64,000 bases of DNA from assembly GCA_963847705.1 (NCBI GenBank), contig CAWKBC010000014.1, positions 160,001 to 224,000 on the forward strand, in the 5' to 3' direction. The position numbers and the translations under genes were made by a program. Position 1 is the first letter of the stretch. The number at the start of each line of letters is the position of its first letter. Of this stretch, positions 2,927 to 34,595 are shown piece by piece. Source of the DNA: an uncultured Pseudomonadota bacterium. GTDB lineage: Bacteria; Myxococcota_A; Polyangia; Fen-1088. Below the pieces are notes generated by a model. The model searched no databases, was not told the origin of the DNA, and saw only the letters and a program-made list of their open reading frames with translations.

Positions 2927-2999
2927 GGGGATGTAGCTCAGCTGGGAGAGCGCCTGAATCGCACTCAGGAGGCCGACGGTTCGATCCCGTTCATCTCCA
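2927..2999 (+). tRNA. tRNA-Ala(CGC), CCA not encoded
   Basis: Acceptor GGGGATG/CATCTCC with G3:U70; D arm GCTC/GAGC; anticodon arm CCTGA-ATCGCAC-TCAGG; T loop TTCGATC. Confidence 0.96.
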
Positions 3000-3006
3000 C
3001 GATTTT
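2956..3006 (+). repeat. attL core (tRNA-Ala 3' half)
   Basis: GAATCGCACTCAGGAGGCCGACGGTTCGATCCCGTTCATCTCCACGATTTT, identical to 28608-28658. Confidence 0.95.
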
Positions 3007-4158
3007 CTTACTGTTTTTTCTGACACGGGGCTCCGCGGTAATGAAATTCTGCGAATCATTACCGCGGCTGGGGATGGCGGACCGATTGTTTCGAGGTGCG
3101 TGAGTGCGTCCGCCGGCTAGCACGGTGAGCACCCGCCGCTGGTCCGCGCCGGTGATCGCCTCGCGCGCGATGTAGCTTTCGCGCGACGTGGTCTCCGACT
3201 CGTGGCCGAGGGCCTGCGCCACGGCGTGGGTAGTGGCGCCCCGCTCCACCGCGAGCGTGCCGTGAAGGCCGCGCATCCCGTGCGCGGTCACCTCTGGCAC
3301 CTTCGCCGCTTTGCAGATTCGCTGCACCCATTCCCGTGGCCAGTCCCTCCAGTGCTGCCCGAAGAGCGAATCCGTGGGCCCTTTCCTTTCGGCGATCTTC
3401 TGCAGGTACGGCTGCAGAACCTCGGGGACCGGAAGCGTCCGCTTGCCCGCCTCCGTCTTCGTCTCAGGGATCCAGAGCAACCGTCCCTCGTCGTCCAGAT
3501 CGCGCACGATCCGGCTGACGATCTCCGACGCCCGCATCCCCATCAGCAACGACATCATCGCCGCCACTGCCCCTTCTTCCCCCTGATCGGCGAACTGAAG
3601 AGCCTTCGCCTGCCACCTCCGCGCCTCGTCGATCCGGAGCTGGGCTTTCCCATGCCTCCGCCTGCCCACCCCGGTCACCTCTTCCAACGGGTTGCGCGCG
3701 ATCCACCGCTTCCCCACGCACCACTTCAGGAACGACTTCGCCTCCGCGAGGATGTTCCGGTGCGAGTCGACGGCGAGCGGACGCTTCGTCGTCGGCCTCG
3801 GGCGCGTCCGCAGGTCCTCGTAGTAACCCCTGCAGCGAGCCGGCGTGAGATCGTCGAGCGGGAGATCATCCTCGTGGAAGAAGATCCCCAGTCGCCACGA
3901 GGTGGCCTCGATCGATCGCTGTTTGTTCCCCTTGTCGTCCCGCATATACGCCTCGTACTTCTCCCGCGCTTCCCCGATCGTCCGCTCCCCGCCTTTCGCG
4001 AGCTCCCTCCTCAACGATCGGACGACCTGTTTCGCTTCCTCTTCGCTTTCATAGTCCGTAACAGTCTTCTCGCCTCCTGCTGAGACCAGGAGGACTCTCC
4101 ATCGTCTGTAGTGTCGATATGGTCCGAGCACCCGCTCGGGTTTGCTTCTTCGCGCCAT
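2965..4158 (-). CDS. Tyrosine recombinase/integrase
   Basis: Catalytic set GMRASE (R), TKT (K), HGMR (HxxR), LGH, SY (Y); adjacent to tRNA att. Confidence 0.93.
   Translation of the reverse strand: MARRSKPERVLGPYRHYRRWRVLLVSAGGEKTVTDYESEEEAKQVVRSLRRELAKGGERTIGEAREKYEAYMRDDKGNKQRSIEATSWRLGIFFHEDDLPLDDLTPARCRGYYEDLRTRPRPTTKRPLAVDSHRNILAEAKSFLKWCVGKRWIARNPLEEVTGVGRRRHGKAQLRIDEARRWQAKALQFADQGEEGAVAAMMSLLMGMRASEIVSRIVRDLDDEGRLLWIPETKTEAGKRTLPVPEVLQPYLQKIAERKGPTDSLFGQHWRDWPREWVQRICKAAKVPEVTAHGMRGLHGTLAVERGATTHAVAQALGHESETTSRESYIAREAITGADQRRVLTVLAGGRTHAPRNNRSAIPSRGNDSQNFITAEPRVRKNSKKIVEMNGIEPSAS
3033..3067. promoter_or_regulatory. 12-bp inverted repeat; candidate integrase arm sites or tRNA terminator
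   Basis: CCGCGGTAATGA-N11-TCATTACCGCGG; GCGGTAA/TTACCGC recurs at 28516-28522 and 28558-28564 next to attR. Confidence 0.55.
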
Positions 4159-4989: not shown

Positions 4990-6747
4990 TCAGCGGGAAA
5001 TCTCCGGACTGATCTGAATCGAAAGGCGGCCCACGGGATCACGCGCGACGGTCACGACCTTTGCCCGCAGCCGCTCGGCGTCCTTGGGTTTCGGAACAAG
5101 CGCGAGCTGGCGGTGCCGATAGTCGACAACCTGGACGTACTCGGTTCCGGACGGACCCGCTGGCGCTGGAACCAGCTGTCCCCTGAATCGCTGAGGATTG
5201 GCCACGAAGGCCAGCCCAAGCCGTTGGGCGGCCCCCTCACCGATCGTCACCCGTTCCTTTTCCAGGTCGGTGATGAGCGGCGCTGCGGGCTCCCTCTTAG
5301 CGGGCGAGAACTTGTCGATCTGAAGGCGGGGGCGAGAGTGCGTCCGTTCCCTCGACTCCAACTGGGCGATCAGGTCAGATGGGACCCGCCATCGCCCCTC
5401 TGGCAGTTGACTGGCCAACCCATACGCCAACAGGCGTTCGAGTCGACGGACATTTCCCTCGACGAGATTCGCCGGCGACAGGGCGTCCGCGTCGGACTTC
5501 GTGGCCTGCTTGGTTTCGAGCTCCCGCTGATGCTCCCGCGGGGCATACACGCCGCCATTTTCTTTGGCGACTTGAGCGATGGCCTTGTCGGCGGCCTTCA
5601 GCCAATCTTCGGCCTTGAAGCCCACTCTGATCGTGTCCCCCCGGTGCAGGGTCTCCGCGACCTCGGGCCGAATCGGGATGTAATAGCCTTGGCCGTGGGT
5701 CGCCTGCACAGCGACGAACATCTCGCCGGACAACTCGTCATGAAGGCCCTTGCCGACTACGACGGCTCCGAAATTGGACAGGGGCAGTTTCGGATCGACG
5801 AACTGATATTCGGCTGCCTTCTCGCCGACGATGGGATACAGCCGCTCGATGCGGTCGTTCTGCTCGCCCAGGCGGGTAAGCGTTTCCTTCCACCCGCCGG
5901 TCAGACGCCACACCCCGGGTCGCTCTTCGACCGCCAGCTTGAGTTCGGTGAGGGTCTGAAGCCGTGCCACGCAATTCCGACCCTCTGGCCCCGGTCGGGC
6001 GAGCAGCTTCTTGAGAGTCACCGTGCCGTCAGGCTGAACATGCTCGGTCAGAAATCGGTCGACCATGGTGACGCGCTCGACTCCAATTTCCGCCTCGCGC
6101 GCCCGGGAATATTCGAGCTCCGTCCTGGGCCCCAGCTCGCGCGTGACAATTTCCTGCGCCCGCCAGCGCATCTGGTGCTTGATGTAAGCGGAGTCGATTC
6201 GGACGTCGTCACCATCGACGTCGACGCCTCGGACGTCGATATGGACGTGGGGGTTATCGGTGTTGTGATGATTGACGGCGGCCCAGATGAGACGCCGCCC
6301 GAGGTCGTTTTCGACCTGGTTCATCAACCGGCGGGCGAATTCTTTCAGGTCGAGCTCATCCCCATCTTCGGGGGAAACGATGAATCGAAATTGCCGCTCC
6401 TCACCGGCCAGAGGGGCACGAAAGGCATCCCAATCGAACCCATCGTCCGCTCCGTAAAGACGTCCCGGAGAGCCGTCTCGTTCGACGCCGTCGCGTTCCA
6501 GGTACGCGAGGTGGCGCCTCATCCCCGCAAGACCCTGCTTTCCCAGCGTTGCGTACCTGCTCTTGATCACGCATCGCCGACTACTTTCTGCCGGCGTATG
6601 AACCGCCACGCGGGCCGGGCGGGCGGCCTTTCTCGCGAGTCGCCGAAATCCACCCCCGGGCGACGGCACACGATCCGGGCTGCGTCGGCGCCGACCAATT
6701 CGGGGGCGAAATGGCTCCTCTGGATCGCCGAGATTCCAGGTGCTCAT
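4990..6747 (-). CDS. Relaxase, MOBP/VirD2-like with DUF3363-type C-terminus
   Basis: HLAYLERDG (catalytic Tyr), FRFIVSPEDG, HHNTDNPHVH (3H motif), RAQEIVTRELGPR, GLHDEL. Confidence 0.88.
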   Translation of the reverse strand: MSTWNLGDPEEPFRPRIGRRRRSPDRVPSPGGGFRRLARKAARPARVAVHTPAESSRRCVIKSRYATLGKQGLAGMRRHLAYLERDGVERDGSPGRLYGADDGFDWDAFRAPLAGEERQFRFIVSPEDGDELDLKEFARRLMNQVENDLGRRLIWAAVNHHNTDNPHVHIDVRGVDVDGDDVRIDSAYIKHQMRWRAQEIVTRELGPRTELEYSRAREAEIGVERVTMVDRFLTEHVQPDGTVTLKKLLARPGPEGRNCVARLQTLTELKLAVEERPGVWRLTGGWKETLTRLGEQNDRIERLYPIVGEKAAEYQFVDPKLPLSNFGAVVVGKGLHDELSGEMFVAVQATHGQGYYIPIRPEVAETLHRGDTIRVGFKAEDWLKAADKAIAQVAKENGGVYAPREHQRELETKQATKSDADALSPANLVEGNVRRLERLLAYGLASQLPEGRWRVPSDLIAQLESRERTHSRPRLQIDKFSPAKREPAAPLITDLEKERVTIGEGAAQRLGLAFVANPQRFRGQLVPAPAGPSGTEYVQVVDYRHRQLALVPKPKDAERLRAKVVTVARDPVGRLSIQISPEISR

Positions 6748-7850: not shown

Positions 7851-7903
7851 AGTCCCTGTGCTAACCCATCTGTCGGATCCCCGATTTTCCCGCGTAGCAA
7901 ACT

Positions 7904-8719
7904 CTACGTTCGGCGACCGGTCCTTCGGCGCCATCGGGGCTCACGTCTGACTCCCCGGCGCCTACGCCGGGGCCGTCGAGTCTTAGAAAGGGAGCGGCGT
8001 GCTTTCCGCGCTCGCTTGATTTCGTACATCGCCGCATCGGCCCGCTTGACTACCTCGTCGAGCGATTCTGTCTCTTCATCGAACACGTGAACCCCACCAC
8101 TGAGCCCGACAGTAATGCCCGCGGCGCTAATGAGGGCGTGAAGGCCGCAGTTCTTTGACACGACAGCGACGATCCTGTCACGGACGGCTTCGGCCCATGT
8201 CCGGTCGTGATCGGGCAACAACACGACTACCTCATCACCGCCCCAGCAGTAAGCCTCACCGGGCCACTTCACGACTGATGCGACGCTTTTGAAATAAATC
8301 TGCAGGATTTCGTCGCCGACGTCGTGGCCGAGGCGATCGTTGATCGCCTTCATCCCGTCGAGGTCCAGAAAAAGGAGTGCGTGGGTCGTTCCGCTAACCC
8401 ACTCAAGTTGCTCTGGGCCGTTCGTTTTGACGAACCGGCGGTCGAACAAGATCCCAAACTTCTCTCTCAGAAGGTCTGGCGCCGCCGCAATTGTACGCGC
8501 AATCTCCTCCTTCGGCATCGACTCGGCTTTGAGCAGGACCCTTCCCTCTTCGTCGAGCAAGGCAGCTCCCCCGCCGGCTGTCTCCGTCCATCGCCATCTG
8601 GGCCCCTGGGCTTGCTCCTGGTCAGGGTGCGCCAGCTTTGCCATCGACCTGTTGAGCCGGCGTAACTCATCGACCGAGCGGTTTAGATGGTCGAGCAGCC
8701 CCTTTTTGGGTTTGGCCAT
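7904..8719 (-). CDS. GGDEF-domain protein (diguanylate cyclase-like)
   Basis: FLDLDGMKAINDRLGHDVGDEIL, WGGDEV, RADAAMYEIK. Confidence 0.85.
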   Translation of the reverse strand: MAKPKKGLLDHLNRSVDELRRLNRSMAKLAHPDQEQAQGPRWRWTETAGGGAALLDEEGRVLLKAESMPKEEIARTIAAAPDLLREKFGILFDRRFVKTNGPEQLEWVSGTTHALLFLDLDGMKAINDRLGHDVGDEILQIYFKSVASVVKWPGEAYCWGGDEVVVLLPDHDRTWAEAVRDRIVAVVSKNCGLHALISAAGITVGLSGGVHVFDEETESLDEVVKRADAAMYEIKRARKARRSLSKTRRPRRRRRGVRREPRWRRRTGRRT

Positions 8720-10743: not shown

Positions 10744-11883
10744 TCAGCCTTCTGAAATTGGGTCCGCGCATTTGTTCACAGCCGCCAATAGGACAGTTGC
10801 TGAAATCTCAGCTGCCTTAGCTGAAGGGTGTAGGCCTCGGATATCCTCAAGCGCTTTGTTAAGCCACGGCCGCAGGGGGAGCGTGAGTGGGTTGGCATCA
10901 AGCCAGCGGTCGGAGTCGACGTCAAGAGCGCTCGCCGAGCTCGCAGGGAGCAGTTGCCGACGCGATACGGAGAGACACGCAAGCCGCAACCTTGACATCT
11001 CGGTCGGTGGCAAACCCTCGTCGCGGAGCTGTGCATACCAGTCCTCGAGCAAGGCCACGGCGTCCGGCACCTCGTTGAGATGCTCGAGATCCCGGGCGAA
11101 GTCCTCACGGGTGTACCCTCGTTGCCGGAGCAGATCCTCGTAGGTCGCGCAGGCGTCGGTCCGCCTTCCCAGAGAGCTGAGCTTGGCGATGAGCGCGTCG
11201 ACGAGAGCCCGTGCCTGGCCAGCATGGGGCGGGTTCCTCGCCAGCAGAAAATCGTGCGCGATGCCGACCAAATACCGGTCGGGAGCGTCCGGCGGCAGCG
11301 GGACTCGGAGCACCCTCAAGAGACTGGAGCTGAGGGCTCCTGCCGCTGAAAGCAGGTCGGAAATTGCCTCAGTCAGCTCTTTTGCTCTGGAGGGCTCCAG
11401 GTCCTGGAGGGTAAAACCGACCGCCGTCGCAAGATTTCCGCCGTTCGCCAGTTCCAGATCGCAGCCAGCATTGGAGACAAAGTGTCCCTCCACTCGGAGC
11501 TCGTTGAACCCCGAGAGCGTGAGGCAGAGTTTCCCGAGCGGACTGGCACGAAACTTGGCCGGCCTATCCGCGGTGGCCACTGCCCCCTTCTTACGGCGAG
11601 GGTTTGAGAGGCCGGTCAGTTCGGCCCAAGACCACTCTCCCCAATCCTTCTTTTTGACCTGGTAGACGCGAACGGACGTGGGGGCAGTAGCAGAATCCAA
11701 TTCCGCTACATCTTGAAAGCATTCGAAAAGAAACAGGAAATCCTGCTGCCCCGCACCCTCTGCCTCGAACATTCGCATGAGCGCCCAATGGCGCTGAAAA
11801 TCGACGCCCTTTTGGCCGTGCCCACCTCCCGTCTCGGCGAGATCCTCGCGACTCGCCACGAGCATGATTTCTGGATGGGGCAC
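10744..11883 (-). CDS. lmuA: DUF4297/Cap4-like PD-(D/E)xK endonuclease effector, Lamassu LmuA
   Basis: GG..GQKGVDFQRHWAL, ECFQDV, VYQVK motifs typical of Cap4 nuclease domains; directly upstream of the SMC ATPase. Confidence 0.75.
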   Translation of the reverse strand: MPHPEIMLVASREDLAETGGGHGQKGVDFQRHWALMRMFEAEGAGQQDFLFLFECFQDVAELDSATAPTSVRVYQVKKKDWGEWSWAELTGLSNPRRKKGAVATADRPAKFRASPLGKLCLTLSGFNELRVEGHFVSNAGCDLELANGGNLATAVGFTLQDLEPSRAKELTEAISDLLSAAGALSSSLLRVLRVPLPPDAPDRYLVGIAHDFLLARNPPHAGQARALVDALIAKLSSLGRRTDACATYEDLLRQRGYTREDFARDLEHLNEVPDAVALLEDWYAQLRDEGLPPTEMSRLRLACLSVSRRQLLPASSASALDVDSDRWLDANPLTLPLRPWLNKALEDIRGLHPSAKAAEISATVLLAAVNKCADPISEG

Positions 11884-13830: not shown

Positions 13831-14532
13831 GTGACCAAGAACCCTCATGCTGTCGCCCTCGGACGCCTCGGCGGTGCCAAGGGCGGAAGAGCCCGTGCGA
13901 GAGCCCTGACTCCTCGCCGCCGTCGAGAGATAGCCCGCCAGGCTTCAGCGGCACGCACGAGGAGTCTCTCGGCCGAGGAACGAAGGGAGCTCGCCAGCCG
14001 CGCTGCTCGAGCCCGATGGTCCACCGCGACGCCTACGGCCCCAACGGTGAGGAGCTGGCTTCGCGATCTAGGCGCGCCGCTGACTCGCGCCGCCGTCGCA
14101 AACAGGCGGGCCCCGGACCCCGAGCAGGTCGTGGTCCAAGGCCTCCGCCTGGCTCACACGGACGCGTCCGTGGCGAGGGCACTCCCCGTGATGCTCTGGG
14201 CCAATCGCGACACGCTACGGCTCGCCGATTTGGTCCGCCGTGCACGGCGAGCGAAGGAGGGAGCTACTCTCGGGTTCTTCCTGGAACTGACGTCCGAGCT
14301 TGCCGGGAGTCGGCCATTCGCCGCCGAATACGCAGATCTAAGGCGGGATCGGCCGCCTTCGAACACCTTCTTCTTCGATGGCGCCGAGAAGAGCCTGGTC
14401 GGGAAGGAGCTGGCTGCGCTCAACACGCCACCCGTCGCTCGGCGATGGCGGTTCCTGATGAACATGCCGCTCGACAGCTTCGAGACCCTCTTCCGAAAGA
14501 CCTTCCGTGCGCCACCGTCCCCAGGAACTTGA
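13831..14532 (+). CDS. Putative antitoxin/regulator with basic KNPHAVALGRLGG N-terminal domain
   Basis: KNPHAVALGRLGGAKGGRARA followed by two R-R-E-I/L-A helical repeats; overlaps the downstream NTase gene. Confidence 0.65.
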   Translation: MTKNPHAVALGRLGGAKGGRARARALTPRRRREIARQASAARTRSLSAEERRELASRAARARWSTATPTAPTVRSWLRDLGAPLTRAAVANRRAPDPEQVVVQGLRLAHTDASVARALPVMLWANRDTLRLADLVRRARRAKEGATLGFFLELTSELAGSRPFAAEYADLRRDRPPSNTFFFDGAEKSLVGKELAALNTPPVARRWRFLMNMPLDSFETLFRKTFRAPPSPGT

Positions 14533-15079
14533 ACGCTTCGTCGAGGCAATCGATGCGGCGCTGCCCGAGCCCGCCGCGATCCTCGTCATCGGCGGTGCCG
14601 CTGCAGCGCTCGCGTACGGAGCGACCCGGCCGACCGACGACATCGACACTTTTCATCCGCTGACTCCCGTCGTCCAGAAGGCCATCGAAGCGGCGCAGCG
14701 CTCGACAGGCCTGACGATTCCTGTCTCCTTCGCGGCGGTGGCGGATGCTCCCTACGACTTCGAGGACCGATTGATCCCGATTCGTGCGCTACGACTGAAA
14801 CGGCTGACGGTCGTGGTTCCGGAGCGGCACGACCTCGTCCTGATGAAGACGCTGCGGGGCTACCAGCACGACGTCGAGGTCATCGAGCAGATTCACCGAC
14901 GACAACCCTTGGTCTTCGAGGTGCTGCGCTCGCGGTGGAAGAGCGAGATGGGCCACGCAGTGGTGGACCCTCGCCGCGCGAATCTGAACTTCGTCGAGGT
15001 CGTCGATCACCTCTTCGGTCGCGAGCGCGCGGAGGCGATTCGACGCGAGTTGGGACACAGCCGCGGACCTGAGCGATAG
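14507..15079 (+). CDS. DUF6036-like minimal nucleotidyltransferase (type IV TA/AbiEii-like)
   Basis: LVIGGAAAALAYGATRPTDDID pol-beta NTase motif; DLVLMK. Confidence 0.8.
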   Translation: MRHRPQELERFVEAIDAALPEPAAILVIGGAAAALAYGATRPTDDIDTFHPLTPVVQKAIEAAQRSTGLTIPVSFAAVADAPYDFEDRLIPIRALRLKRLTVVVPERHDLVLMKTLRGYQHDVEVIEQIHRRQPLVFEVLRSRWKSEMGHAVVDPRRANLNFVEVVDHLFGRERAEAIRRELGHSRGPER

Positions 15080-15692: not shown

Positions 15693-16226
15693 GTGGTCGA
15701 CGCCGTGTCGTACCTCATGGTGGACATCGAAGCGGATGGACCGATCCCGGAGCGCTACTCAATGGTGGCGATCGGGGCGGTGGTGGTCGAGCCCGGTTTG
15801 CAGCGCACGTTCTACGGGCGCCTGCGGCCGATCTCCGAGCAGTTCATCCCTACCGCCCTCGCGGTCAGCGGATTCTCGCGTGCCGATACCCTGGCGTTCC
15901 CGAATCCGGGTGACGTGATGCGCGAATTCTCCCACTGGATTGGCGAGAACACGACCGGCCGCCCGATGTTCGTCTCCGACAACAACGGCTTCGACTGGCA
16001 GTTCGTCAACTGGTACTTCCACGCGTTCCTGGGCGAGAACCCCTTCGGGCACTCGTCGACGAACCTCGGGTCGCTCTACAAGGGCCTCGTGAAGGACTTC
16101 AAAAAGAATTTCAAACACCTGCGCCGCTCTCGGCACACCCACAACCCGGTCGACGACGCGCGGGGCAACGCCGAGGCGCTCCTGCACATGAGGGACGCGC
16201 TCGGGCTGAAGATAGATCTCCGATAG
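15693..16226 (+). CDS. DEDDh 3'-5' exonuclease (RNase AS/DnaQ-like)
   Basis: VDIEADGP (ExoI), NGFDWQF (ExoII), HNPVDDA (ExoIII). Confidence 0.88.
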   Translation: MVDAVSYLMVDIEADGPIPERYSMVAIGAVVVEPGLQRTFYGRLRPISEQFIPTALAVSGFSRADTLAFPNPGDVMREFSHWIGENTTGRPMFVSDNNGFDWQFVNWYFHAFLGENPFGHSSTNLGSLYKGLVKDFKKNFKHLRRSRHTHNPVDDARGNAEALLHMRDALGLKIDLR

Positions 16227-16417
16227 CCGGCCCCCCAAGGCCGCTGCCCCAACCCGAAACTCGGTCCGATCAGGTCGTCGAATCCTTTGACCGCGGCCGG
16301 AAGGCAGCCCCCGATTCTCCTAGTGATTTGTCTGAAAGAGCCCGAACTCAAAACGGGATGTTGCCTTTGGATGCCGGAATTCTGTAAGATTCCATCCAGG
16401 GGAAACAGGAGGTTTCG

Positions 16418-16735
16418 ATGGAGCGAGATTGGCGCAAGAAGCTGGCTACTCTGCTGGCGTCGTTGGAGCGAATCTGGGGCCTGAAGACCCGTGTGGCCCT
16501 CGGAGCGACGGTCGCTTCGATAGTCTCGCTGGCGGCTTTACCGGCGGCGAGAGCGGAGGCAAAGACAGACTCGACGGAGATCGCGGCGACCGCCCCCCGC
16601 AAGCCCGGCAAGCTGGCTGGCAAGTTCCTCCTTCGGCAGGCTGGCGGCCGGAGCGGCAGGACGCAGGCTGAACACGGCTCTCACTCCTCGCACAGCTCTC
16701 ACTCGTCGCACCGCTCGGGAGCCTGGCTCCTCTAA
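16418..16735 (+). CDS. hxsA: His-Xaa-Ser repeat precursor protein
   Basis: C-terminal HGS-HSS-HSS-HSS-HRS; hydrophobic N-terminal segment; RBS AGGAGG; upstream of two radical SAM genes. Confidence 0.85.
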   Translation: MERDWRKKLATLLASLERIWGLKTRVALGATVASIVSLAALPAARAEAKTDSTEIAATAPRKPGKLAGKFLLRQAGGRSGRTQAEHGSHSSHSSHSSHRSGAWLL

Positions 16736-16740
16736 CGACC

Positions 16741-17055
16741 ATGTTCGGCGAGACCGAAAGGTCCGTCGAGGGCGAGCGTCAGCTCACTGTCGAGTTGCCG
16801 CTGTACGGGCGTGAGGGACTTCTACGCGCCTGCTATGCCTTCACGGACCGCTGTTTTCTGTTCCTTCGAGACGCCGGTCCCTCGAAGGTCACGGTCGTCT
16901 TTCGTAAGCGACAGAGCCCCAAGACTCTCGAAGCCCTCGTCGAGGAATTCGCCAACGAACTCGTCGGCCAAAGCCTCCGGGCGCAGCTCGCTGCCGAGAC
17001 GAAGTCCGTGCGGGAGCTGATCGTGGCTCAGGCCTTCGCAGAATCTGACCTGTGA
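16741..17055 (+). CDS. hxsD: His-Xaa-Ser system protein HxsD
   Basis: LYGREGLLRACYAFTDRC..EFANEL..LR...AAETKSVRELIVAQAF. Confidence 0.8.
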   Translation: MFGETERSVEGERQLTVELPLYGREGLLRACYAFTDRCFLFLRDAGPSKVTVVFRKRQSPKTLEALVEEFANELVGQSLRAQLAAETKSVRELIVAQAFAESDL

Positions 17056-17279
17056 TCGCCCGTACCCGGACGTTCTCGGCCAGTCTGTACCCGAGATCCG
17101 CCGTTGAGGCCGCCGTGCTCGCTTTCCATGGCATCTGCGAGGTCAGCGTCGAGGACGAACTCGGAGGTATCCGCGCCACGTTCGAGCTACCGGACGGTGC
17201 CACAGAAGATGTCATCGGCGAGTTCTGCAACGTCGCCCTGATCACCGCTGTCGAGATGGAGTTCGGGACCCGTCCATGA
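17052..17279 (+). CDS. Second, shorter HxsD-like protein
   Basis: LYPRSAVEAAVLAF..GEFCNVAL aligns with the N-terminal part of HxsD; coupled to both neighbours by GTGA/ATGA overlaps. Confidence 0.65.
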   Translation: MIARTRTFSASLYPRSAVEAAVLAFHGICEVSVEDELGGIRATFELPDGATEDVIGEFCNVALITAVEMEFGTRP

Positions 17280-18781
17280 CGAAGCCCGTTTTCCGCGAGC
17301 CGAGTCACTTCGAGGAACGGCGGCGGCCATACACATTCCTACCGTTCAGGTACTTGGACCTGGCCGGGCAGAAGCTTCTCGTGAACGAGGTTGGCGAGCA
17401 CCTACTGGTGGCCGATTCCACGTTCGAAGCATTCGTCGGCAAGAAGCTGCAACCGGACGCAGTCGCGTACGGCGATCTAAAGGCTAAGCAAATGCTGCTG
17501 GACGGGCCTCCGGATGTCCCTATCAGGATGCTCGCCACGAAGTACCGGACGAAGCGTAGCTTCCTGTCTGGGTTTACCCGCCTCCACATCTTCGTCGTCA
17601 GTCTCCGCTGCGAGCATTCTTGCCACTACTGCCAGGTCTCTCGAGTGAGTACCGACAAGAGTCGCTACGACATGACTGTGGAGACAGCCAATCGTTCACT
17701 CGACCTCGTGTTTCGGTCGCCGGCACCCGAGCTCAGCATCGAGTTCCAGGGCGGTGAACCACTCCTCAACTTCAACTTGATCCGGCACGTAGTCGAGCAG
17801 GTAGAGCGCAGGATCGCAGTCGAGCCGAGACGGGTCCAATTCGTCATCACCACGAACCTCGCCCTTGTGACCGATGAGATCCTAGAGTTTTGCCGTCAGC
17901 ACAAAATCCTGATCTCGACGTCGCTCGACGGACCGGCATCCATCCACAACACGAATCGCCCCCGACCAGGCAACGACAGTCACGAGCTGACCGTCCGGGG
18001 TATCGAGCGCGCAAGGTCGATCCTCGGTTACGACCAGGTCTCGGCGCTGATGACGACGACGAAGCTGACGCTGGACCACCCCGAGGAGGTCGTCGACGAG
18101 TACGTTCGACTCGGTTTTGACCACATCGTCCTGCGCCCGCTCAGCCCTTACGGGTTCGCGGTCAAGACGAAGCTCAAGACCGGCTACGACACGGACGCCT
18201 ACCTTCGCTTCTATGAGAGGACGCTCGCCTACGTCATCGAGATGAATCGAGGGGGTGGGTTCTTCGTGGAAGGCTTCTCGCAGCTGCTGCTCACCAAGAT
18301 CCTCACCCCGTTCGCGACTGGATACGTCGACTTGCAGTCGCCTGCCGGTGCCGGGATCTCGGCGGCCGTCTACAACTACGATGGCGACGTCTACGTGTCC
18401 GACGAAGCCAGGATGCTGGCCGAAATGGGTGACAAGACCTTCAGGCTCGGAAGTGTCCACACCGACACCTACGAGGCCATGTTCGGTGGCGAGCTGCTGC
18501 GCACGCTTGTGGAATCGTCGTGCGTGGAGTCACTCCCGGGCTGTTCGGACTGCGCACTCCAGACTTGGTGCGGATCCGATCCCGTCGAGAACTACGCCAA
18601 GCAGGGCAACATCGTCGGGCACCGACCGACCAGCGATTTCTGCCACCGGAACATGAGCATCATCAAGCACCTGCTGCGCCTCTATCATGAGGGAGACGAT
18701 CAGCTCCGACGCATTTTCTGGTCGTGGGTGAACAACAGACCAGTCGCCGAACTGGTTCCGGGCTTGGAGGCGATAGCGTGA
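17276..18781 (+). CDS. hxsB: His-Xaa-Ser system radical SAM maturase HxsB (SPASM-type C-terminus)
   Basis: LHIFVVSLRCEHSCHYCQVS, IEFQGGEPLL, YVDLQSPAGAG, YVSDEARML, CSDCALQTWCGSDP. Confidence 0.92.
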   Translation: MTKPVFREPSHFEERRRPYTFLPFRYLDLAGQKLLVNEVGEHLLVADSTFEAFVGKKLQPDAVAYGDLKAKQMLLDGPPDVPIRMLATKYRTKRSFLSGFTRLHIFVVSLRCEHSCHYCQVSRVSTDKSRYDMTVETANRSLDLVFRSPAPELSIEFQGGEPLLNFNLIRHVVEQVERRIAVEPRRVQFVITTNLALVTDEILEFCRQHKILISTSLDGPASIHNTNRPRPGNDSHELTVRGIERARSILGYDQVSALMTTTKLTLDHPEEVVDEYVRLGFDHIVLRPLSPYGFAVKTKLKTGYDTDAYLRFYERTLAYVIEMNRGGGFFVEGFSQLLLTKILTPFATGYVDLQSPAGAGISAAVYNYDGDVYVSDEARMLAEMGDKTFRLGSVHTDTYEAMFGGELLRTLVESSCVESLPGCSDCALQTWCGSDPVENYAKQGNIVGHRPTSDFCHRNMSIIKHLLRLYHEGDDQLRRIFWSWVNNRPVAELVPGLEAIA

Positions 18782-19980
18782 TCAGGCTCGTCTCCCGCGG
18801 CGTCGCGCAGGGTCAGTTCAGGGACGAGAGGCTCGGTCGGATCACGACAACGGCTATCGACCCAGACCTTCGAGCAGATCACGCCTTCCTCGTCAGGCCG
18901 GCATCGGCGACGCCAGACCTCACTGGGTATGCCGGCGTCCTGGTGCTTCCCGGCGCTGAGGTTCCGACGACGGACCTACCAGCGACGAAGGTCGGCGAGG
19001 AACTGAGCTACCTATCAGACGGCGATGTCGTCCTCATGACACCGTCGGGCCGGATAAGCGTCCTGTACCGGAAATCATCACGACACAATACGATCCTGTC
19101 GACGGAGAGGTGCAACAGCCTCTGCCTCATGTGCTCGCAGCCCCCGCAACCTGAGGACGACAGCTACAGGGTTCCCCAGATCCTGCGACTGCTGGACCTC
19201 ATCGACACCGGCTGTGTCGAACTGGGTGTTAGCGGGGGCGAGCCCCTGCTCCTGGGTGACGGCTTCTTTTCGATCGTCGAGAAGTGCAAGCGGCTGCTGC
19301 CATCGACCGCCCTTCACGTGCTCACGAACGGCCGCCTGTTCAAGGATCCGACCTTTGCGAAGCGACTCGGCGACATCGCTCACCCAGACATCATGCTCGG
19401 GATTCCCCTGTACGCGGACGTCGACACCGTCCACGACTATGTCGTGCAGGTGCAAGGCGCCTTCGATGAGACCGTCTTCGGTCTATACAACCTGGCTGAA
19501 CACGGCGTTCCCATCGAGATCCGCGTCGTCCTCCACGCCCAGACGTACCGACGTCTGCCTCAGCTGGCCGAGTACATCTATCGAAACTTCCCATTCGTCT
19601 CCCACGTCGCCCTCATGGGCCTGGAGATGTTCGGGTACACGAACATCAACCTGGCCGACCTCTGGATCGACCCCGTCGACTACCAACCCGAACTTCGGGC
19701 TGCGACGATGACTCTCGCGGAGCGCGGGCTGAACGTCTCCATCTACAATCACCAACTCTGCACGATCCCGCAGGAACTGTGGCCGTTCGCTAGGCAGTCG
19801 ATCTCCGACTGGAAGAACATCTTCGTACCCGAGTGCGAGGGCTGTTCGGCAAAGGCGATGTGCTCGGGGTTCTTCCACTCAGCAGCGAAGCGGCACAGCG
19901 CCCACATAGCGCCGCCGAAGATACCGGCAGTGCTTGCGGATCGATTGACCAGCCTGGGAGTCGAGGCGGCTCGCGGGTAG
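18778..19980 (+). CDS. hxsC: His-Xaa-Ser system radical SAM maturase HxsC
   Basis: TERCNSLCLMCSQPP, SGGEPLL, HDYVVQ..GAFDET, SISDWKN..CEGC..CSGFF; RBS GGAGG and GTGA overlap. Confidence 0.92.
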   Translation: MIRLVSRGVAQGQFRDERLGRITTTAIDPDLRADHAFLVRPASATPDLTGYAGVLVLPGAEVPTTDLPATKVGEELSYLSDGDVVLMTPSGRISVLYRKSSRHNTILSTERCNSLCLMCSQPPQPEDDSYRVPQILRLLDLIDTGCVELGVSGGEPLLLGDGFFSIVEKCKRLLPSTALHVLTNGRLFKDPTFAKRLGDIAHPDIMLGIPLYADVDTVHDYVVQVQGAFDETVFGLYNLAEHGVPIEIRVVLHAQTYRRLPQLAEYIYRNFPFVSHVALMGLEMFGYTNINLADLWIDPVDYQPELRAATMTLAERGLNVSIYNHQLCTIPQELWPFARQSISDWKNIFVPECEGCSAKAMCSGFFHSAAKRHSAHIAPPKIPAVLADRLTSLGVEAARG

Positions 19981-20054
19981 AAGATGTGCTCCTGGCGGTC
20001 ACGATGATCAACCACTCGTGCTCGATCAGCTGGTTGGCCCCCGTCGATGCAGGA

Positions 20055-21153
20055 TCAAGCTTGATCGGTTTTTGCCTGAACCAGGTTACGTACGTAGGCC
20101 AGTAGGCAGTATCGGACCAGTCGGTGGAAGAACTCTGCGTACGGCAGCTTCTGTTCGGACTCGAAAACTTCGGTCCCCCCAAGTCATGCCGACCGAGGCG
20201 TCCATGTGCCAGTCTGGAAACATCGGCACGCCTGGTGACAGATACATGGGGTCGCCGTTGTGGAGGTAACCAGATCTCGCGTCATAGATTGCCGCTGCAA
20301 CGTCAGCGAGAGTTTCCGGCGTCACCTGGGTATGGGCGGGCTCGCGCGGTTCAGGATCGAAGAAGCCTTTGGAGTACTGCTCGAGGAACCCGACGAATCG
20401 GACCTTTGCCTTCCGAGTGTGAAGCAGGCCGCGAAGCTCGCCGCGCTGGTCTTCTCTTAACTGCTCCATCTTGAAGAGCTGTTCGGCGGTGAGGCCGTCG
20501 AATAGATCGCCTGGGATTGGCTGATCCTGTGCGACCGTCTCGATCGCCGATACGAGGCGGACGAAAACCATCTCGGCGTCGAGACCGATGTTTCGTAGAC
20601 CGCGAGCGTAGTGATTGGCGGCCGTGACCACGCGCTGGTGGTACCTCTCGGGAAGAGCGGAGAGGTCGTCCAGGAATGGTGGCAGCGAAAGCGTGAAATT
20701 GCGGTCGCTCAGTGAGAAAACGATCGAGTCGACCCCAGGACCGGTTTGTCCTCGAAGGGGCCAATATTCCGTCTTGAGCCGAACACCGTCATCTCCCAGA
20801 GGGGGAATCGTCGTCGATACGAGATACAAACGGGCTTGAAGAGAGAGTGAGAAGAGCGCGATCAGCTCACCGATTGGACCATCGGGGAACAGATATCCTT
20901 TCCGCGTCCCTTCTGATCGGAGAACTTCCGCGGCGGTGGGCGGCAGCCTGAGTCTCAGGGCATATTTGTACAGCCCTGCCGGATCCGGGACGAGGGTCGT
21001 ACATCGGGAGATGACAGCACCTTCTCGATAAATCATCAGACCCGGGATGAGCACTTCGGATGCGAACTCGGCCTCGAGATACTCTGCGCCACCTTGAGCA
21101 GAGGCGGCGTCTAGGGTCCGCAACCAAAGCATTCGCTTGTCTGGATCTGCCAT
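20055..21153 (-). CDS. HEPN-domain (ApeA-like) protein; apparent single-base frameshift near 20164-20180
   Basis: FVRLVSAIE helix and IYDARSGYLHNG (RxxxxH); alternative frame supplies FESEQKLPYAEFFHRLVRYCLLAYV to a stop at 20055. Confidence 0.7.
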
Positions 21154-21213: not shown

Positions 21214-22146
21214 TCAGGACGTCCCTCTTCCATTGGATCCGCGAACTGATTCGTATCGGAGAAGAATGAAGTGCGCGGCCGTCAGCGCGTACTGTCGACA
21301 GATCCTCGCGTGTTCGTGCTCGGACATGTTCGCGTGGCCGCCGTGAATACTGAGGATCGTGTGGAGTGCGAAAAGGAACCTCTCTTCCTCCTCGGTGATC
21401 AGGCCGTTCGCTTTTAGGAAGGCGCGCACCGGGCCGGGCAGCGCACTCCTGGCAAGGTTCTTCTTGCTCGCGACGGCAGCTGCGCGGGCGACGCCGAGCA
21501 GGGCGATCTCCATGACGTCCCGCCCATGCTTGATGCTGTCTCCCCATTTTCCCGCGGTGTAGTGCTCATCAGTCAGATTCAGATCGTTTGATACTTGCTC
21601 GAGGCCTTCCAAACTCAGGCTCTTGAAAAGGGACAGCAAGGCACCCGATTGCTCCTCGACGTCGAACACATTGGCCTCCCGCACGGCGACTTTGCCATCG
21701 CGGAGCTCATAGCCATCCAGTTCGAGGCAATTGGTCATTCGCTTGATGAGCCAGGAACCCGGCTTCACAAGGCATTCCTCGCTGCGAGCGAACTTCACGA
21801 TATCCTCGACGAGCTTCAGCACGATTCGTTGCGAGGCGATCAGCAGCTCTGGCGCGCTCGCTGCTAGTGCCGAGACTTGCGGCGTCGTCCCCATCCTGGC
21901 GTCGAGACCGAGAACGAAATATTTGATGGCGCCTCGCTGGGGCTGGAGTTGGCGTGCGAGGTGGATCAGCGGTGCGGGATACTCGTTTGCGTACAGAAGA
22001 TCAGCGAACCAGTCGGGGCGGACGCGTTCCTCAGATTTGCCACCGAGGTTGATCGTGAACTCGAAGCACGCCGAGACGACCTCCGCCAAGGCCAAGATCG
22101 TTCGGTTACGAAGCGGTGGCCCAACCACGCTGCGTGCCTCTGCCAT
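21214..22146 (-). CDS. Hypothetical Abi-like protein (possible abortive-infection C-terminal/HEPN-like domain)
   Basis: CLELDGYEL linker; C-terminal helical domain WGDSIKHGRDVME..LSIHGGH; defence-island context. Confidence 0.55.
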   Translation of the reverse strand: MAEARSVVGPPLRNRTILALAEVVSACFEFTINLGGKSEERVRPDWFADLLYANEYPAPLIHLARQLQPQRGAIKYFVLGLDARMGTTPQVSALAASAPELLIASQRIVLKLVEDIVKFARSEECLVKPGSWLIKRMTNCLELDGYELRDGKVAVREANVFDVEEQSGALLSLFKSLSLEGLEQVSNDLNLTDEHYTAGKWGDSIKHGRDVMEIALLGVARAAAVASKKNLARSALPGPVRAFLKANGLITEEEERFLFALHTILSIHGGHANMSEHEHARICRQYALTAAHFILLRYESVRGSNGRGTS

Positions 22147-22991: not shown

Positions 22992-23939
22992 GTGAATACC
23001 TATTTCATCGGGAAAGAGGAGATTGAGGCGTACGCCCTCGACCTAGTCGGCCGCTTGGAACGCCTTGAGTCGTTCCCACAGGTTTGGTGCCCCGTCACCA
23101 AGTCCGGGGACGCCATCCAAAAAGTCCTTGCGCCGATCATCCAGGCGATCCGACCGCAATTGTTGGAAGGAGTTCGCAGTGTTTCTATCGGGGTTGAAAA
23201 AACTGGGATCACGTTTTTAGAAGAGGCGAATCCGGGCTCTGAGTTAAGCGGGAAAAGCGTGCTTCTTTTGGACGGCGCCATTCACTCCGGCGATACGATG
23301 AATCGGTGTACGGCGGAGATTCTGAGGTATCAGCCCAAAGAACTGAGTAGCTACTCCTTGGTTATGAAGGTCGGAGCATCCTTCATACCGACCTTTTGGG
23401 GCGTCGCAATAGACGAGACCGATCGCGCCTTTTTCCTCTTAGACAATATCCCGAATCATCGCTTGGACGCTGGGCCGACAAGACGTCAGCCGCCAGTCCA
23501 CCTGGAGCGGCTTTCCGAGAAGCACGTGAAACTGCCGCGGTTAGAATGCGGCGTCGGATCGATGGACCGGATGACATGGTCCGATCGATATTTCCAGATG
23601 CAGGCGGCCGAACATCCCCCGTGTACGTACCTGCTCATGCGCAGCCAGACAATCGTCGGCTACCTGACGGTACGTCATGGTTCCAATGGGGTCTTTTCAA
23701 TCGACGAGGTGGCCAGCACGAAGTCCTCAGGGTATGGGGGAATTCTGATGCGTTTTGCTGACACGCTGGCTCGCCAAACGAATTGCGCGCTCGTCCAGCT
23801 AAACGCAATTGAAAATCAAGTCTCGTTCTACTTGAAATTCGGCTATCGCAAGATAGATGGTCGCCGGCCGCTGACCTTGGATGACGAGATCTTCTGGCCG
23901 ATGGAACGAACGGTTCTTTACCACCAGAGACACCGCTAG
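22992..23939 (+). CDS. Phosphoribosyltransferase-like domain fused to a GNAT acetyltransferase
   Basis: GKSVLLLDGAIHSGDTM PRPP-loop variant; C-terminal IVGYL..IDEVAS..GYGGILM..FYLKFGY GNAT pattern. Confidence 0.72.
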   Translation: MNTYFIGKEEIEAYALDLVGRLERLESFPQVWCPVTKSGDAIQKVLAPIIQAIRPQLLEGVRSVSIGVEKTGITFLEEANPGSELSGKSVLLLDGAIHSGDTMNRCTAEILRYQPKELSSYSLVMKVGASFIPTFWGVAIDETDRAFFLLDNIPNHRLDAGPTRRQPPVHLERLSEKHVKLPRLECGVGSMDRMTWSDRYFQMQAAEHPPCTYLLMRSQTIVGYLTVRHGSNGVFSIDEVASTKSSGYGGILMRFADTLARQTNCALVQLNAIENQVSFYLKFGYRKIDGRRPLTLDDEIFWPMERTVLYHQRHR

Positions 23940-25358: not shown

Positions 25359-27953
25359 TTAAAAGCCAGGAATCTCGAGCTTGCGGGCGAGACGGAGGAC
25401 GTGATCGTTCTTCGGGTCCAAGGCCAGCGCCTTTTCGACGGCCCGTCGAGCAGGAGGATGTTCTTCGAGATTCAGGTGCAACCACGCCAGCCTTGAAAGA
25501 TCTGTCGCGTCCACCTGCTTCCCGAATCGAGAAAATGCGTCAACGATTGGCGCGATGAGGGAGCGCCGATCGTAACCGTAGTCCTTGAAGTCCCTGAGGA
25601 TTCCATTTATGCGATTTGCGGCTTCACTGATCTCCTCCAGGCTAATGAGAGAACTCCTGCCGTATTCGCCCCAGGCGTGTAGAGCTGCCTCGGGGTCGCC
25701 GAGCCGCTGTGAGTAGAGCGCCAGTTCTCGCCATGCCTGGCGGCGGTCAGCATCTTGCGGTGCTACCTCGATATACCGTCTAAGGGCGTCCCTCGAGTGT
25801 TTCCACCCATCCGCGTTTCCGACTTCGCCGTAGAGGCGAGACATCATCAGCCAAGCCTGTGGATAGTCCTGAGCGATGTATTCCAGAACCGGAACGTAGT
25901 TCTCGAACTGTTCTGGGCCGTCTGCGAGTGCTTCGGACGCAAGCGCAAAGACCTTCTCCACGTGAGGTGCGATCCCGTGCCGAAGATCCGCTTCCTGAGT
26001 CGCACCGAAAGCTCGGAGGAGAGCGACATCAGCAGCGACTGCCGGGCTTGACGGTTCCGTGCTGAGCTTCCTGCGGCCGAACAGCGACGCGACGAGTGGT
26101 GCGCGGAGAAATTCGTGTCGGCCGGACATCAGAACCTCGATCAGGGAGGATCTCCGAAGAGCTTCAACGGCTTTCTCGACATCCATCTTGTCGGCGTTTG
26201 CTGGTCGAAGGAGCACCGCTTCGAGCCCCACCCGTGGGACCCATGACCGCCAACTGCACAGCGTGAGAAACACACGTCGCGAGCTAGGATCGAGGCTGCC
26301 GTACGTCCGCTCGAAGAGAGCCGTCAAGATGTTTTCTTTCGACGCGACGATCCGCTCGACAGCGAGGAGACGGCCGGCGTTTGCCACCTCGCCGAGAAGA
26401 ACCTTCATCACATAAGGGTGGCCCTCTGCTTCCTCGTGCAGGCGCCGCTTGTACTCGGAAGTCAACAGCCCTGTGATCCCGAGACTACTGGCAGTACCTT
26501 CGATCAGCTTCTCGCTCTCTTCCTCCTCCATGCCGGACACCGCGATCTGGTAGTCCCCGTTGAATTCGCTCAGGCGTGTCGTGATCAGAACCTTGTTGGG
26601 CAAACGGATAGAAGCATCGATCCAGCGAAACAGATCCACGGGCGATGACACCGTCTCGAAATTGTCGAACACGAATAGGGTCGCCCCGGCAGCGGCGCGT
26701 TCCATTTCACTCCTCATAAACTCCACAGGCTTGAAACCCCTCTTCCCGGCGTCGGGCGCGTCTATCAAGCGTGCGTATTCCGTCGCAATGTCCACCTCGT
26801 TCAAAACATCCGGTTTCACCGGCTTCGGGCCCGCGGTCATCAGATCGACGTCGCGAGCACTGAACCAGAGAATGGCAGTGAACTGTCCCGACATAGCGAG
26901 GTCGTTCAGGACCTCGAGGGCTAGCGACGTCTTGCCGATGCCGCCGCGCCCATGAAGCGTCACTAGCGGGTGACGATCGTCCGTGAGACAGCGAGACAGT
27001 TCTCGCTCAAGCCTCTCCCTCTTGATGTAGCCTGGTGGGCGAACAGGAAGGTTGGCGAAGGAGTTCCCAACGATCTCCAGTGCACCTCGAGCTTTCGTCT
27101 CACTTCCGGGCAAGGAGGTAGCAGGTACGAGGTATGGGGCCGCATCGGCCGATGCCGCGCTGCCGGTAATGTACGAGACGACCTCGAACCGCTTGTCGTT
27201 GAACCCGCCATTCGGACAGTGGAAGTCTGAGAGTTCACCATCCGAACGCAGCATTTCGACGAGCCGGAGACGATCAAACTCGACGTAGATGCCGTTCGGC
27301 AACGATGTAGAGGTCTTGGATCGGAGGTCGTCGAATGCACGAGATGAAGCGCCACAATAGGCAACCCGATACTTTCCGGAAAGGTTGCGGTGGAGGAACG
27401 CCCACGGGCGACCGAATAGCGCGAAGTTGGCCATGACCATTTCGATCGAGGCGGCCAAGGCCTCGATCGCTGCCGCCCGTTGAACTGGTCCCTGCGCCCC
27501 ATGCCCGCGGGTCTTGTTCCTGAGATGGACGAATATCCTGAACCAGTCTCGTTGGCTCGGACTACCGGAAACGTCCGGAACGTCGGGCGCTAGTTGGCCG
27601 GCGGCACGATGAATAGCTGTAACCGCATTGACCACCCACTCGGCCGACGACTTCTTCTGCGTTAGCGCACGTACCTCGTCTTCAGCTGCCGTTCGGAACT
27701 GTGCCGTAGGCCCCGTAAGGATCTCTTCGATCACTTCCCCCCACACACCGAGACCGCTCGCCCGTACCAGTCGATGGATCTGCCTATATCGATGTCGGTC
27801 GGCGTCATCGTCTATTGCGGCGACCAAGCCAGCGGTAACCAACTTGGTCACGAACTCCCCCGCAAGCATCAGACTGTCGAAATACTCAGCGTCGGAATTC
27901 TCACGGGCGCGCGACATTCGCTCGCGCATCCGATCTAGCGGCAGGAACGGCAT
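25359..27953 (-). CDS. STAND/NB-ARC NTPase with C-terminal TPR-like repeats (NLR/Avs-like)
   Basis: GRGGIGKT, LFVFDNFE, VLITTR, GHPY; helical C-terminus AVEKALALDPKN; N-terminal domain with LRNKTRGHG. Confidence 0.85.
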   Translation of the reverse strand: MPFLPLDRMRERMSRARENSDAEYFDSLMLAGEFVTKLVTAGLVAAIDDDADRHRYRQIHRLVRASGLGVWGEVIEEILTGPTAQFRTAAEDEVRALTQKKSSAEWVVNAVTAIHRAAGQLAPDVPDVSGSPSQRDWFRIFVHLRNKTRGHGAQGPVQRAAAIEALAASIEMVMANFALFGRPWAFLHRNLSGKYRVAYCGASSRAFDDLRSKTSTSLPNGIYVEFDRLRLVEMLRSDGELSDFHCPNGGFNDKRFEVVSYITGSAASADAAPYLVPATSLPGSETKARGALEIVGNSFANLPVRPPGYIKRERLERELSRCLTDDRHPLVTLHGRGGIGKTSLALEVLNDLAMSGQFTAILWFSARDVDLMTAGPKPVKPDVLNEVDIATEYARLIDAPDAGKRGFKPVEFMRSEMERAAAGATLFVFDNFETVSSPVDLFRWIDASIRLPNKVLITTRLSEFNGDYQIAVSGMEEEESEKLIEGTASSLGITGLLTSEYKRRLHEEAEGHPYVMKVLLGEVANAGRLLAVERIVASKENILTALFERTYGSLDPSSRRVFLTLCSWRSWVPRVGLEAVLLRPANADKMDVEKAVEALRRSSLIEVLMSGRHEFLRAPLVASLFGRRKLSTEPSSPAVAADVALLRAFGATQEADLRHGIAPHVEKVFALASEALADGPEQFENYVPVLEYIAQDYPQAWLMMSRLYGEVGNADGWKHSRDALRRYIEVAPQDADRRQAWRELALYSQRLGDPEAALHAWGEYGRSSLISLEEISEAANRINGILRDFKDYGYDRRSLIAPIVDAFSRFGKQVDATDLSRLAWLHLNLEEHPPARRAVEKALALDPKNDHVLRLARKLEIPGF

Positions 27954-28607: not shown

Positions 28608-28658
28608 GAATCGCACTCAGGAGGCCGACGGTTCGATCCCGTTCATCTCCACGATTTT
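28608..28658 (+). repeat. attR core (tRNA-Ala 3' half duplicate)
   Basis: 51/51 identity with 2956-3006. Confidence 0.95.
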
Positions 28659-30782: not shown

Positions 30783-30817
30783 GAATCGCACTCAGGAGGC
30801 CGACAGTTCGATCCCGT
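30783..30817 (+). repeat. Third copy of the tRNA-Ala att core
   Basis: GAATCGCACTCAGGAGGCCGACAGTTCGATCCCGT, 34/35 identical to the tRNA. Confidence 0.88.
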
Positions 30818-34571: not shown

Positions 34572-34595
34572 GAATCGCACTCAGGAGGGCGACGG
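34572..34595 (+). repeat. Fourth (shorter) copy of the tRNA-Ala att core
   Basis: GAATCGCACTCAGGAGGGCGACGG, 23/24 identical to the tRNA. Confidence 0.8.

Follow-up and report, generated by a model that had tools for sequence, protein, structure and literature searches.

Can a His-Xaa-Ser (HxS) operon act against phages if its peptide precursor ends at the repeats and lacks the wall anchor on which the Escherichia coli system depends? The question is raised by the five-gene hxs cluster at 16418..19980 of the stretch presented above, which we call the window (64,000 nt from a soil bacterium; all positions are coordinates in it). The preliminary description of this cluster considered its biological role poorly characterised, which is out of date. 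Li et al. (Nat Commun 2026, PMC13128918) report that the four-gene HXS system of E. coli inhibited 110 of 113 phages by delaying the entry of their DNA, all genes being required. According to the same paper, E. coli HxsA is cut, gains +8 Da on the motif SHRSS and reaches the periplasm; HxsC binds HxsD; and HxsA cannot do without its signal peptide, any of its repeats or its peptidoglycan-binding domain. T4 and P1 were among the phages not restricted. Three questions are left unanswered there: the way in which the effector stops DNA, the nature of the +8 Da change, and the reason for the wall anchor. The anti-phage role proposed for the window cluster therefore pointed in the right direction, but it had already been published for E. 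coli, and as first framed both this role and the second HxsD gene are largely known or catalogued. What is new is the anchor-less variant. In our opinion, with a probability of roughly 0.6, the intact five-gene operon would make a short, exported HxS peptide, matured by radical S-adenosylmethionine (SAM) enzymes, that, without any wall anchor, impedes the entry of phage DNA.

An HxsA without a peptidoglycan-binding domain is indeed a more telling difference than the second HxsD, and it had been overlooked. The window hxsA (16418..16735, + strand; AGGAGG 5 nt before the ATG) encodes 105 residues: a long basic N-region, a hydrophobic segment at 26-40 (mean Kyte-Doolittle value 2.1) with an AxA site, the pair F70-x-L72, the junction A84-x-H86, and five HxS triplets at 86-100, so that the C-terminus reads HGS-HSS-HSS-HSS-HRS-GAWLL. 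The five triplets and the hydrophobic segment before LPAARA-EA had been described correctly; cleavage between LPAARA and EA is a prediction from the sequence. The protein stops five residues past its repeats and has no C-terminal domain. It matches nothing in Pfam, while the HxsA of Klebsiella, used as a positive control, matches PG_binding_1 (PF01471), and it falls below the cut-offs of all four HxsA models (29.4 against 121.65 for TIGR03979, 31.1 against 48 for NF038296, 18 against 65 for NF038309, 23.4 against 55 for NF038313).

The short form is nevertheless shared. Window HxsA is matched by 24 proteins of 101-112 residues, and the nearest longer relative is only 41% identical, a figure that is weak as a negative since the search was crowded. 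Across an alignment of 23 sequences the positions F70, L72, A84 and G101-A102 never vary, nor do the His and Ser of the triplets (H98 and S100 included); the final repeat is HRS in 22, and all 23 share the short end. The ratio of nonsynonymous to synonymous substitution rates (dN/dS), taken pairwise against loci L153, L156 and L155, is 0.11-0.16 for hxsA and at most 0.22 for all five hxs genes, these values being rough for L156 and L155, where dS exceeds 1 and, in the case of L155, approaches saturation. By this measure all five genes are under purifying selection, which, together with 22 equally short aligned relatives, argues that HxsA is not a decayed copy. The last repeat of window HxsA reads SHRSG. 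The literal SHRSS occurs in only 3 of the 79 HxsA open reading frames (ORFs) examined; the residue after the last repeat is Ser or Gly in 78 of them, and Gly in 22 of 46 short HxsA.

The remainder of the operon is intact. The order is hxsA-hxsD-hxsD'-hxsB-hxsC, all on the + strand; 5 nt separate hxsA from hxsD, and the last four genes are coupled, as had been claimed, by 4-nt overlaps (GTGA at 17052-55, ATGA at 17276-79, GTGA at 18778-81). The cluster is complete, with two HxsD-like genes, just as first described: all ORFs are present, and the NCBIfam models of HxsB, HxsC, HxsD and HxsD-like proteins are passed. The radical SAM maturase HxsB (17276..18781, +; 501 residues, with C112/C116/C119 and C423/C426/C432) scores 612.8 bits against TIGR03978 (cut-off 370). 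The second maturase, HxsC (18778..19980, +; 400 residues from a GTG start, with C112/C116/C119 and C353/C356/C362), scores 398.6 bits against TIGR03977 (cut-off 267.9); a longer hxsC ORF, overlapping hxsB, is possible from 18724. The TIGRFAM definition of Hxs, which is credited to Haft and Basu (PMC9062424), describes this arrangement: HxsB, an HxsC beside it and HxsD lie above their cut-offs, next to a protein with tandem HxS triplets. The experimentally studied system was represented by a plasmid operon of Klebsiella oxytoca, in which the cysteines bear the same numbers as in PMC13128918. Window HxsB is identical to its Klebsiella counterpart at 144 of 457 aligned residues and HxsC at 129 of 350. 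In these alignments both Fe-S cysteine motifs are present in both enzymes, and every cysteine reported as mutated in PMC13128918 has a window counterpart.

The two HxsD-type proteins deserve closer comparison. HxsD (16741..17055, +; 104 residues) has a beta-alpha-beta-beta-long alpha arrangement, scores 64 bits against TIGR03976 (cut-off 50), is modelled by AlphaFold2 at pLDDT 92.5, and has a dN/dS of 0-0.07. Aligned to the Klebsiella protein it keeps Y32 and R80 (Y23 and R65 in E. coli), and Gly76 replaces D61. In E. coli these residues belong to the motifs LYW (Y23) and LLNDYxLRE (D61, R65), and D61 and R65 were, as reported in PMC13128918, mutated solely in combination. HxsD' (17052..17279, +; 75 residues) scores 47.3 bits against the HxsD-like model NF038315 (cut-off 41), which 9 of 10 homologues in related loci pass as well, and its dN/dS is 0.22 against L156 and 0.08 against L155. 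Its AlphaFold2 model (pLDDT 91.1) has the same beta-alpha-beta-beta-alpha fold, and a profile-profile comparison of HxsD' (n=11) with HxsD (n=72) gives a probability of 97.4% and an E-value of 1.5e-11. On these sequence profiles HxsD' is a true homologue of HxsD, as had been proposed for 17052-17279. Its long helix is cut short by ~30 residues relative to HxsD and so misses the stretch which bears the invariant R80 and R91 and the near-invariant E86-T87, and an invariant glutamate (Glu68) occupies the position of the invariant Arg80. A heterodimer of HxsD and HxsD' is plausible.

Neither Foldseek nor VIA-align placed HxsD in a clear fold family. The best Foldseek match, to Rpb11, has E 8e-3, a weak likeness, and in VIA-align the best Z is 7.6 (6.5 for Rpb11-type proteins, 5.9 for Gon7-Pcc1), none reaching 8; such weak likeness as there is concerns small dimerising folds (Rpb11, Pcc1).

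The preliminary description suggested that the second HxsD-like gene may define a subtype. It does not define a new one, since NF038315 is already catalogued and the gene is widespread: HxsD' occurs in 10 of 80 GTDB loci, in 40 of 80 metagenome loci, in all four of the closest loci that span the region, and in a second deep HxsB clade common in the host phylum. Nor does it serve as a clade marker, as it requires at least three changes on the HxsB tree, where L002, the GTDB locus closest to the window (support 0.64), carries a single HxsD. A tie between HxsD' and the loss of the D61 aspartate was also considered. The equivalent position is acidic in 1 of 31 two-HxsD genome loci against 71 of 74 with one HxsD, but only 2-3 independent tree pairs underlie this (sign test p 0.5). 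The metagenome loci, duplicates included, break the pattern: 12 of 36 readable two-HxsD loci keep Asp and 4 of 18 one-HxsD loci have Asn. Hence we retain it as a weak trend alone. In L048 the place of hxsD' is taken by a 64-codon ORF (7753-7947) that ends LLNFILEESVE, an HxsD'-like motif, and scores with no model; it is possibly a diverged third lineage. Scans of metagenome contigs for HxsD' and of viral contigs for HxsB, made with short exact patterns that are insensitive, confirmed nothing.

How common is an HxsA that ends at its repeats? We ranked 80 GTDB loci by HxsB similarity, a sample that is biased toward relatives of the window. An HxS protein is visible in 75 of them, the remaining five being mostly cut by contig ends. 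Leaving the window out, the 78 HxS ORFs fall into 45 that stop no more than 8 residues past the repeats, 6 with a short tail and 27 whose tail is at least 60 residues long; among 14 long tails scanned, SH3 was above cut-off in one and PG_binding_1 in none. What follows the HxS module varies: nothing, a peptidoglycan-binding domain, SH3, or an unnamed stretch of 110-270 residues. Such exchangeable tails suggest that the repeats are the constant, working part. In 71 of the 75 loci hxsA precedes hxsD on the same strand, in 4 it is divergent, and the order in these relatives is mostly A-D-B-C, unlike the D-B-C-A order of 99.6% of the operons in the census of PMC13128918. A Leptospira phage (KF114877.1, L142) carries a complete A-D-B-C operon whose 99-residue HxsA has no C-terminal domain. 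Overall HxsB was found on 328 plasmids, 262 of them predicted to be conjugative, and in 2 phage records. Klebsiella accounts for 304 of these plasmids, many of them near-duplicates.

Several further observations were made on these loci. A conserved-looking HxsA tail of 225-273 residues recurs in acidobacterial loci (L001, L006-L008, L011, L019, L031, L033-L035, L041, L043, L044, L047, L049, L055, L064), and no Pfam match above cut-off was obtained in the six scanned. A tandem pair of hxsA genes precedes hxsD in L002, L050 and L073, as well as in L165 and L226. In the host phylum HxsB is above cut-off in 141 of 401 genomes, including 29 of 29 in family f24, and most of the host-phylum loci fetched (L084-L110, L144-L152) are of the HxsA4 type, ordered D-D'-B-A, with 8-23 His-Gly-Ser repeats ending in Trp; these loci look inherited rather than mobile. 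tRNA genes lie near 15 of 80 Hxs loci, a count that is uninformative without a control.

The window cluster itself sits on a mobile element. An identical 51-bp repeat (51/51 nt) bounds a 25.7-kb element at a tRNA-Ala gene: the left copy (2956..3006, +) is the 3' part of tRNA-Ala CGC (2927-3000), and the right copy lies at 28608..28658 (+). The G+C content of the element is 61.3%, that of the genome 69.1%. Among its genes are those of a tyrosine integrase (2965..4158, -; PF00589, E 1.4e-11) and a VirD2-like/DUF3363, RlxS-like relaxase (4990..6747, -; NF041267, E 1e-84, below the cut-off). Integrase, direct repeats at the 3' end of a tRNA gene and relaxase are what characterises an integrative element, and the relaxase gene suggests a mobilisable one. 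Among 25 congeners HxsB was found in only one, at 40% identity, so the hxs cluster was acquired; by tblastn the genome has one copy of each hxs gene. The hxs genes also move as a cassette of their own (approximate limits 16272..19986, +), matching other contigs at 95-97% with different flanks. A soil contig of run X4 matches 16287-19986 (126 differences in 3700 nt) and then diverges into other sequence, one of run X8 matches 16272-20187 before it continues differently, and locus L153 matches 16227-19986 at 95.4% with different flanks.

It had been expected that hxs clusters are enriched near defence genes. We compared 30 of the 80 loci, those on contigs of at least 197 kb (348 flanking ORFs called by a simple script, ~6.5 kb on each side), with 342 ORFs from control stretches of 13.4 kb, taken ~90-200 kb from each locus on its own contig, using PADLOC at E 1e-12. 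Most control matches were to models judged to match housekeeping domains such as ABC ATPases, cysteine desulfurases, helicases and kinases, and from both sets we dropped a list of models (mad2, mad3, SspA/DndA, BrxHI, DpdF, DpdJ, PsyrT, DrmD, RtcR, IetA/TRIP13, PD-T4-6, MkoC, pVip, caspase). Enrichment appeared only after this filtering, with defence-specific genes near 14 of 30 Hxs loci and 2 of 30 control loci (Fisher p 0.0009; 13 of 14 discordant pairs), and near 11 of 22 loci with a domain-less HxsA against 1 of 22 controls. The matches include Septu, Gabija, Lamassu, AbiU, a CBASS phospholipase and restriction-modification genes. The loci are not independent (three are from Mesorhizobium, four from related Acidobacteriota), the script missed AT-rich genes (it called one ORF in L023), and two-HxsD loci make up just 2 of the 30. 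Among four long-tail acidobacterial loci from the one-HxsD branch no defence-specific neighbours were found.

The mechanism that we propose combines these observations with the E. coli model. The anatomy, selection and setting of the operon are our own results, while for the chemistry and the export we draw on E. coli: by homology, HxsC, acting with HxsD, and HxsB would cut HxsA and place +8 Da on the last repeat (SHRSG), and export would follow. The conserved F-x-L, 16 residues before the repeats, may be the recognition site, and the mature product would be approximately the last 20 residues of HxsA. The next steps we infer. What holds the peptide in the envelope is likely its hydrophobic C-terminal tip, or else an N-terminal segment that it keeps, rather than a peptidoglycan anchor, and the repeats of the peptide might stall the incoming phage DNA or its channel. 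HxsD' would pair with HxsD as a heterodimeric adaptor and presumably cannot replace it, because it is without the helix that bears the conserved Arg/Glu-Thr/Arg.

A number of points weigh against this. According to PMC13128918, mutation of the peptidoglycan-binding domain abolishes defence in E. coli, and this is the very domain which window HxsA does not have; the final Ser of SHRSS, reported as essential there, is Gly in the window, as is the residue corresponding to D61 of E. coli HxsD. The window enzymes are just 32% (HxsB) and 37% (HxsC) identical to the enterobacterial type. The enrichment near defence genes disappears if PADLOC matches are left unfiltered (19 of 30 Hxs loci against 15 of 30 control loci, p 0.43), the list of dropped models was picked post hoc, after the hits were known, and 11 of 30 Hxs loci have no PADLOC match at all. 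Moreover, mobile cargo in general tends to adjoin defence genes, and location in an island is no proof of defence.

It is therefore fair to ask whether the product is an ordinary secreted RiPP (ribosomally synthesised and post-translationally modified peptide), a modified His-rich peptide for metal binding, competition or signalling, that lies near defence genes merely as mobile cargo. The leader-core layout with nothing past the core and no anchor domain is what one would expect of such a peptide, several loci have no defence neighbours (among them four Thermoanaerobaculia/Acidobacteriota loci with a long HxsA), and the second HxsB clade occurs in nearly all members of some host-phylum families (f24, 29/29), unlike a patchy defence gene. 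That clade, however, is a different, deep HxsB branch. Beside the window cluster we recognised no gene for a transporter, a protease or immunity, and none is common to the four closest loci; the filtered enrichment also speaks for defence, and the only member studied by experiment, in PMC13128918, is anti-phage. We consider the secreted peptide unlikely, though it deserves to be kept in mind. An envelope barrier could, on the other hand, serve the mobile element itself by excluding plasmids, conjugative elements and superinfecting phages rather than defending the host broadly. The operon does ride an element with integrase and relaxase, among its closest relatives L153 adjoins an integrase and L155 an SLT lysin-like gene, HxsB is found on plasmids and in phage records as counted above, and the experiments described in PMC13128918 did not cover other mobile elements. 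The breadth of the E. coli system (110 of 113 phages) and the 77% of operons which that paper places outside prophages do not fit such a narrow task, and the plasmid count is dominated by near-duplicate Klebsiella records. In our opinion exclusion is distinctly improbable.

Could HxsA instead be a truncated relic, the operon being non-functional or maturing a substrate encoded elsewhere? The domain that is essential in E. coli is missing, and no HxsA model reaches its cut-off. Against this stand the dN/dS of 0.11-0.16, the 24 relatives of similar size with the same short end in the 23 aligned, and the mere 41% identity of the best longer relative. There is no second hxsA in the genome by tblastn, and a six-frame search gave just one further (HxS)3 run, which is of the HPS type and lies on C32. 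RNA-library contigs from three studies cover hxsA, a weak hint that we do not use as proof of expression, the depth being low and a silent control stretch lacking. A relic seems to us very improbable indeed. Returning to the anchor-less effector, a natural HxsA that stops at its repeats presents the core on its own. Should it give protection, no anchor would be needed, and the effector would be a small modified peptide. Such a peptide, if this is true, would also be an easier substrate for chemistry, as full-length E. coli HxsA is reported in PMC13128918 to be insoluble and not maturable in vitro. The published census (99.7% Pseudomonadota, >99.8% four genes, 99.6% D-B-C-A, according to PMC13128918) is questioned as well, A-D-B-C being the rule among window relatives and two HxsD genes being common. 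Taken jointly, and here we are tentative and put the odds below even, the HXS effector might be a radical-SAM-modified HxS array with the peptidoglycan-binding domain as one exchangeable tail; the cassette would then yield a ~20-residue, envelope-retained anti-phage RiPP matured on an HxsD/HxsD' heterodimer, and cargo-less A-D-B-C may be the commonest HXS type outside Gammaproteobacteria, missed by a survey seeded with E. coli HxsA.

The cassette lies among a number of neighbouring genes. The preliminary description placed the cluster on a mobile element among Lamassu, HEPN and STAND genes; the element, LmuA, LmuB and the STAND gene were all recovered, and the HEPN assignment rests on a motif and Atlas neighbours, with no library match. 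Lamassu lmuA (Cap4 nuclease; 10744-11883, -; PADLOC E 7e-118) and lmuB (9025-10719, -; E 3e-238), 24 nt apart, form a neighbouring system outside Hxs, and no LmuC match was found among 38 ORFs scanned with PADLOC. A variable neighbour at 20086..21153 (-) encodes a probable Apea/MauJ-like HEPN protein with an RSxYLH motif, in which R293-x4-H298 is invariant across 29 aligned sequences; an Atlas neighbour named Apea-like HEPN scores 0.96, and Pfam, NCBIfam, PADLOC and a PDB sequence search gave no match. Another variable neighbour at 21214..22146 (-) encodes a probable AbiJ-NTD/Abi_C-like protein, to which Atlas scores of 0.90-0.93 point. On the motif and Atlas evidence both products are probably HEPN-type. 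Further along lie a STAND (NB-ARC) ATPase with TPR repeats (25359..27953, -) and, elsewhere in the cargo, an FRG protein (PDC-S15).

Upstream of hxsA, a DEDDh exonuclease gene (15693..16226, +) was considered as a sixth hxs gene and rejected, its relatives being found in 0 of 80 GTDB loci and contigs of runs X1, X8 and X5 skipping it. An Ion_trans (potassium-channel-like) gene stands directly 3' of hxsC in L153 (8545-9456) and L156 (8687-9610); it is no fixed part of Hxs either, being absent after hxsC in the window, L154 and L155. Scans for promoters and terminators, with totals near chance, gave no promoter on the + strand and no + strand terminator from hxsA to the end of hxsC. At 14191-15079 a small ORF overlaps a DUF6036 nucleotidyltransferase gene, a pair which we take to resemble a toxin-antitoxin or AbiE-like pair and which lies in an element core recurring among other soil runs. 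A phosphoribosyltransferase-GNAT fusion at 22992-23939, inside the element, is matched by run X1 contigs at 99-100%. Past the right end of the element, degenerate copies of the attachment repeat at 30783-30817 (34/35 nt) and 34572-34595 (23/24 nt) suggest older tandem insertions at the tRNA-Ala site.

How, then, does the cluster compare with known systems? With the HXS of E. coli and Klebsiella (TIGR03976-03979) it shares HxsB and HxsC with both cysteine motifs, HxsD, and an exported-type HxsA with five repeats, the last of them HRS. It differs in that HxsA has 105 residues and no peptidoglycan-binding domain, against 211 residues with PG_binding_1 in Klebsiella, in the order A-D-D'-B-C instead of D-B-C-A, in the extra HxsD', and in having SHRSG for SHRSS and Gly for D61 in HxsD. 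It is therefore, judged by its sequence, a member of the Hxs family and not a strict E. coli-type HXS, because the wall-binding domain and the literal SHRSS are absent. The HxsA2 (NF038296) and HxsD-like (NF038315) families are similar in having a short HxS precursor without a C-terminal domain and an HxsD' above the NF038315 cut-off; window HxsA falls short of the HxsA2 model, however (31.1, cut-off 48), and its N-region is longer. Our search of the available literature found no paper that names NF038315 or NF038296, or that tests an anchor-less or two-HxsD system. The HxsA4 type (NF038313) also has two HxsD-type genes directly before hxsB and a precursor ending at its repeats with an aromatic residue. 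It is, unlike the window cluster, a separate deep HxsB branch (~40% identical) with 8-23 repeats and hxsA after hxsB, and in the stretches fetched the canonical hxsC is not beside hxsB. There is likeness, too, to acidobacterial A-D-D'-B-C loci (L001, L003, L004, L006-L008, L011, L016, L019, L033), which share the order, have a related N-region and whose HxsB is 59-64% identical. Seven of the nine with a visible hxsA bear, unlike the window, an unnamed tail of 231-258 residues, while L003 and L004 have, like the window, a short HxsA, ending in GGMF(A/V).

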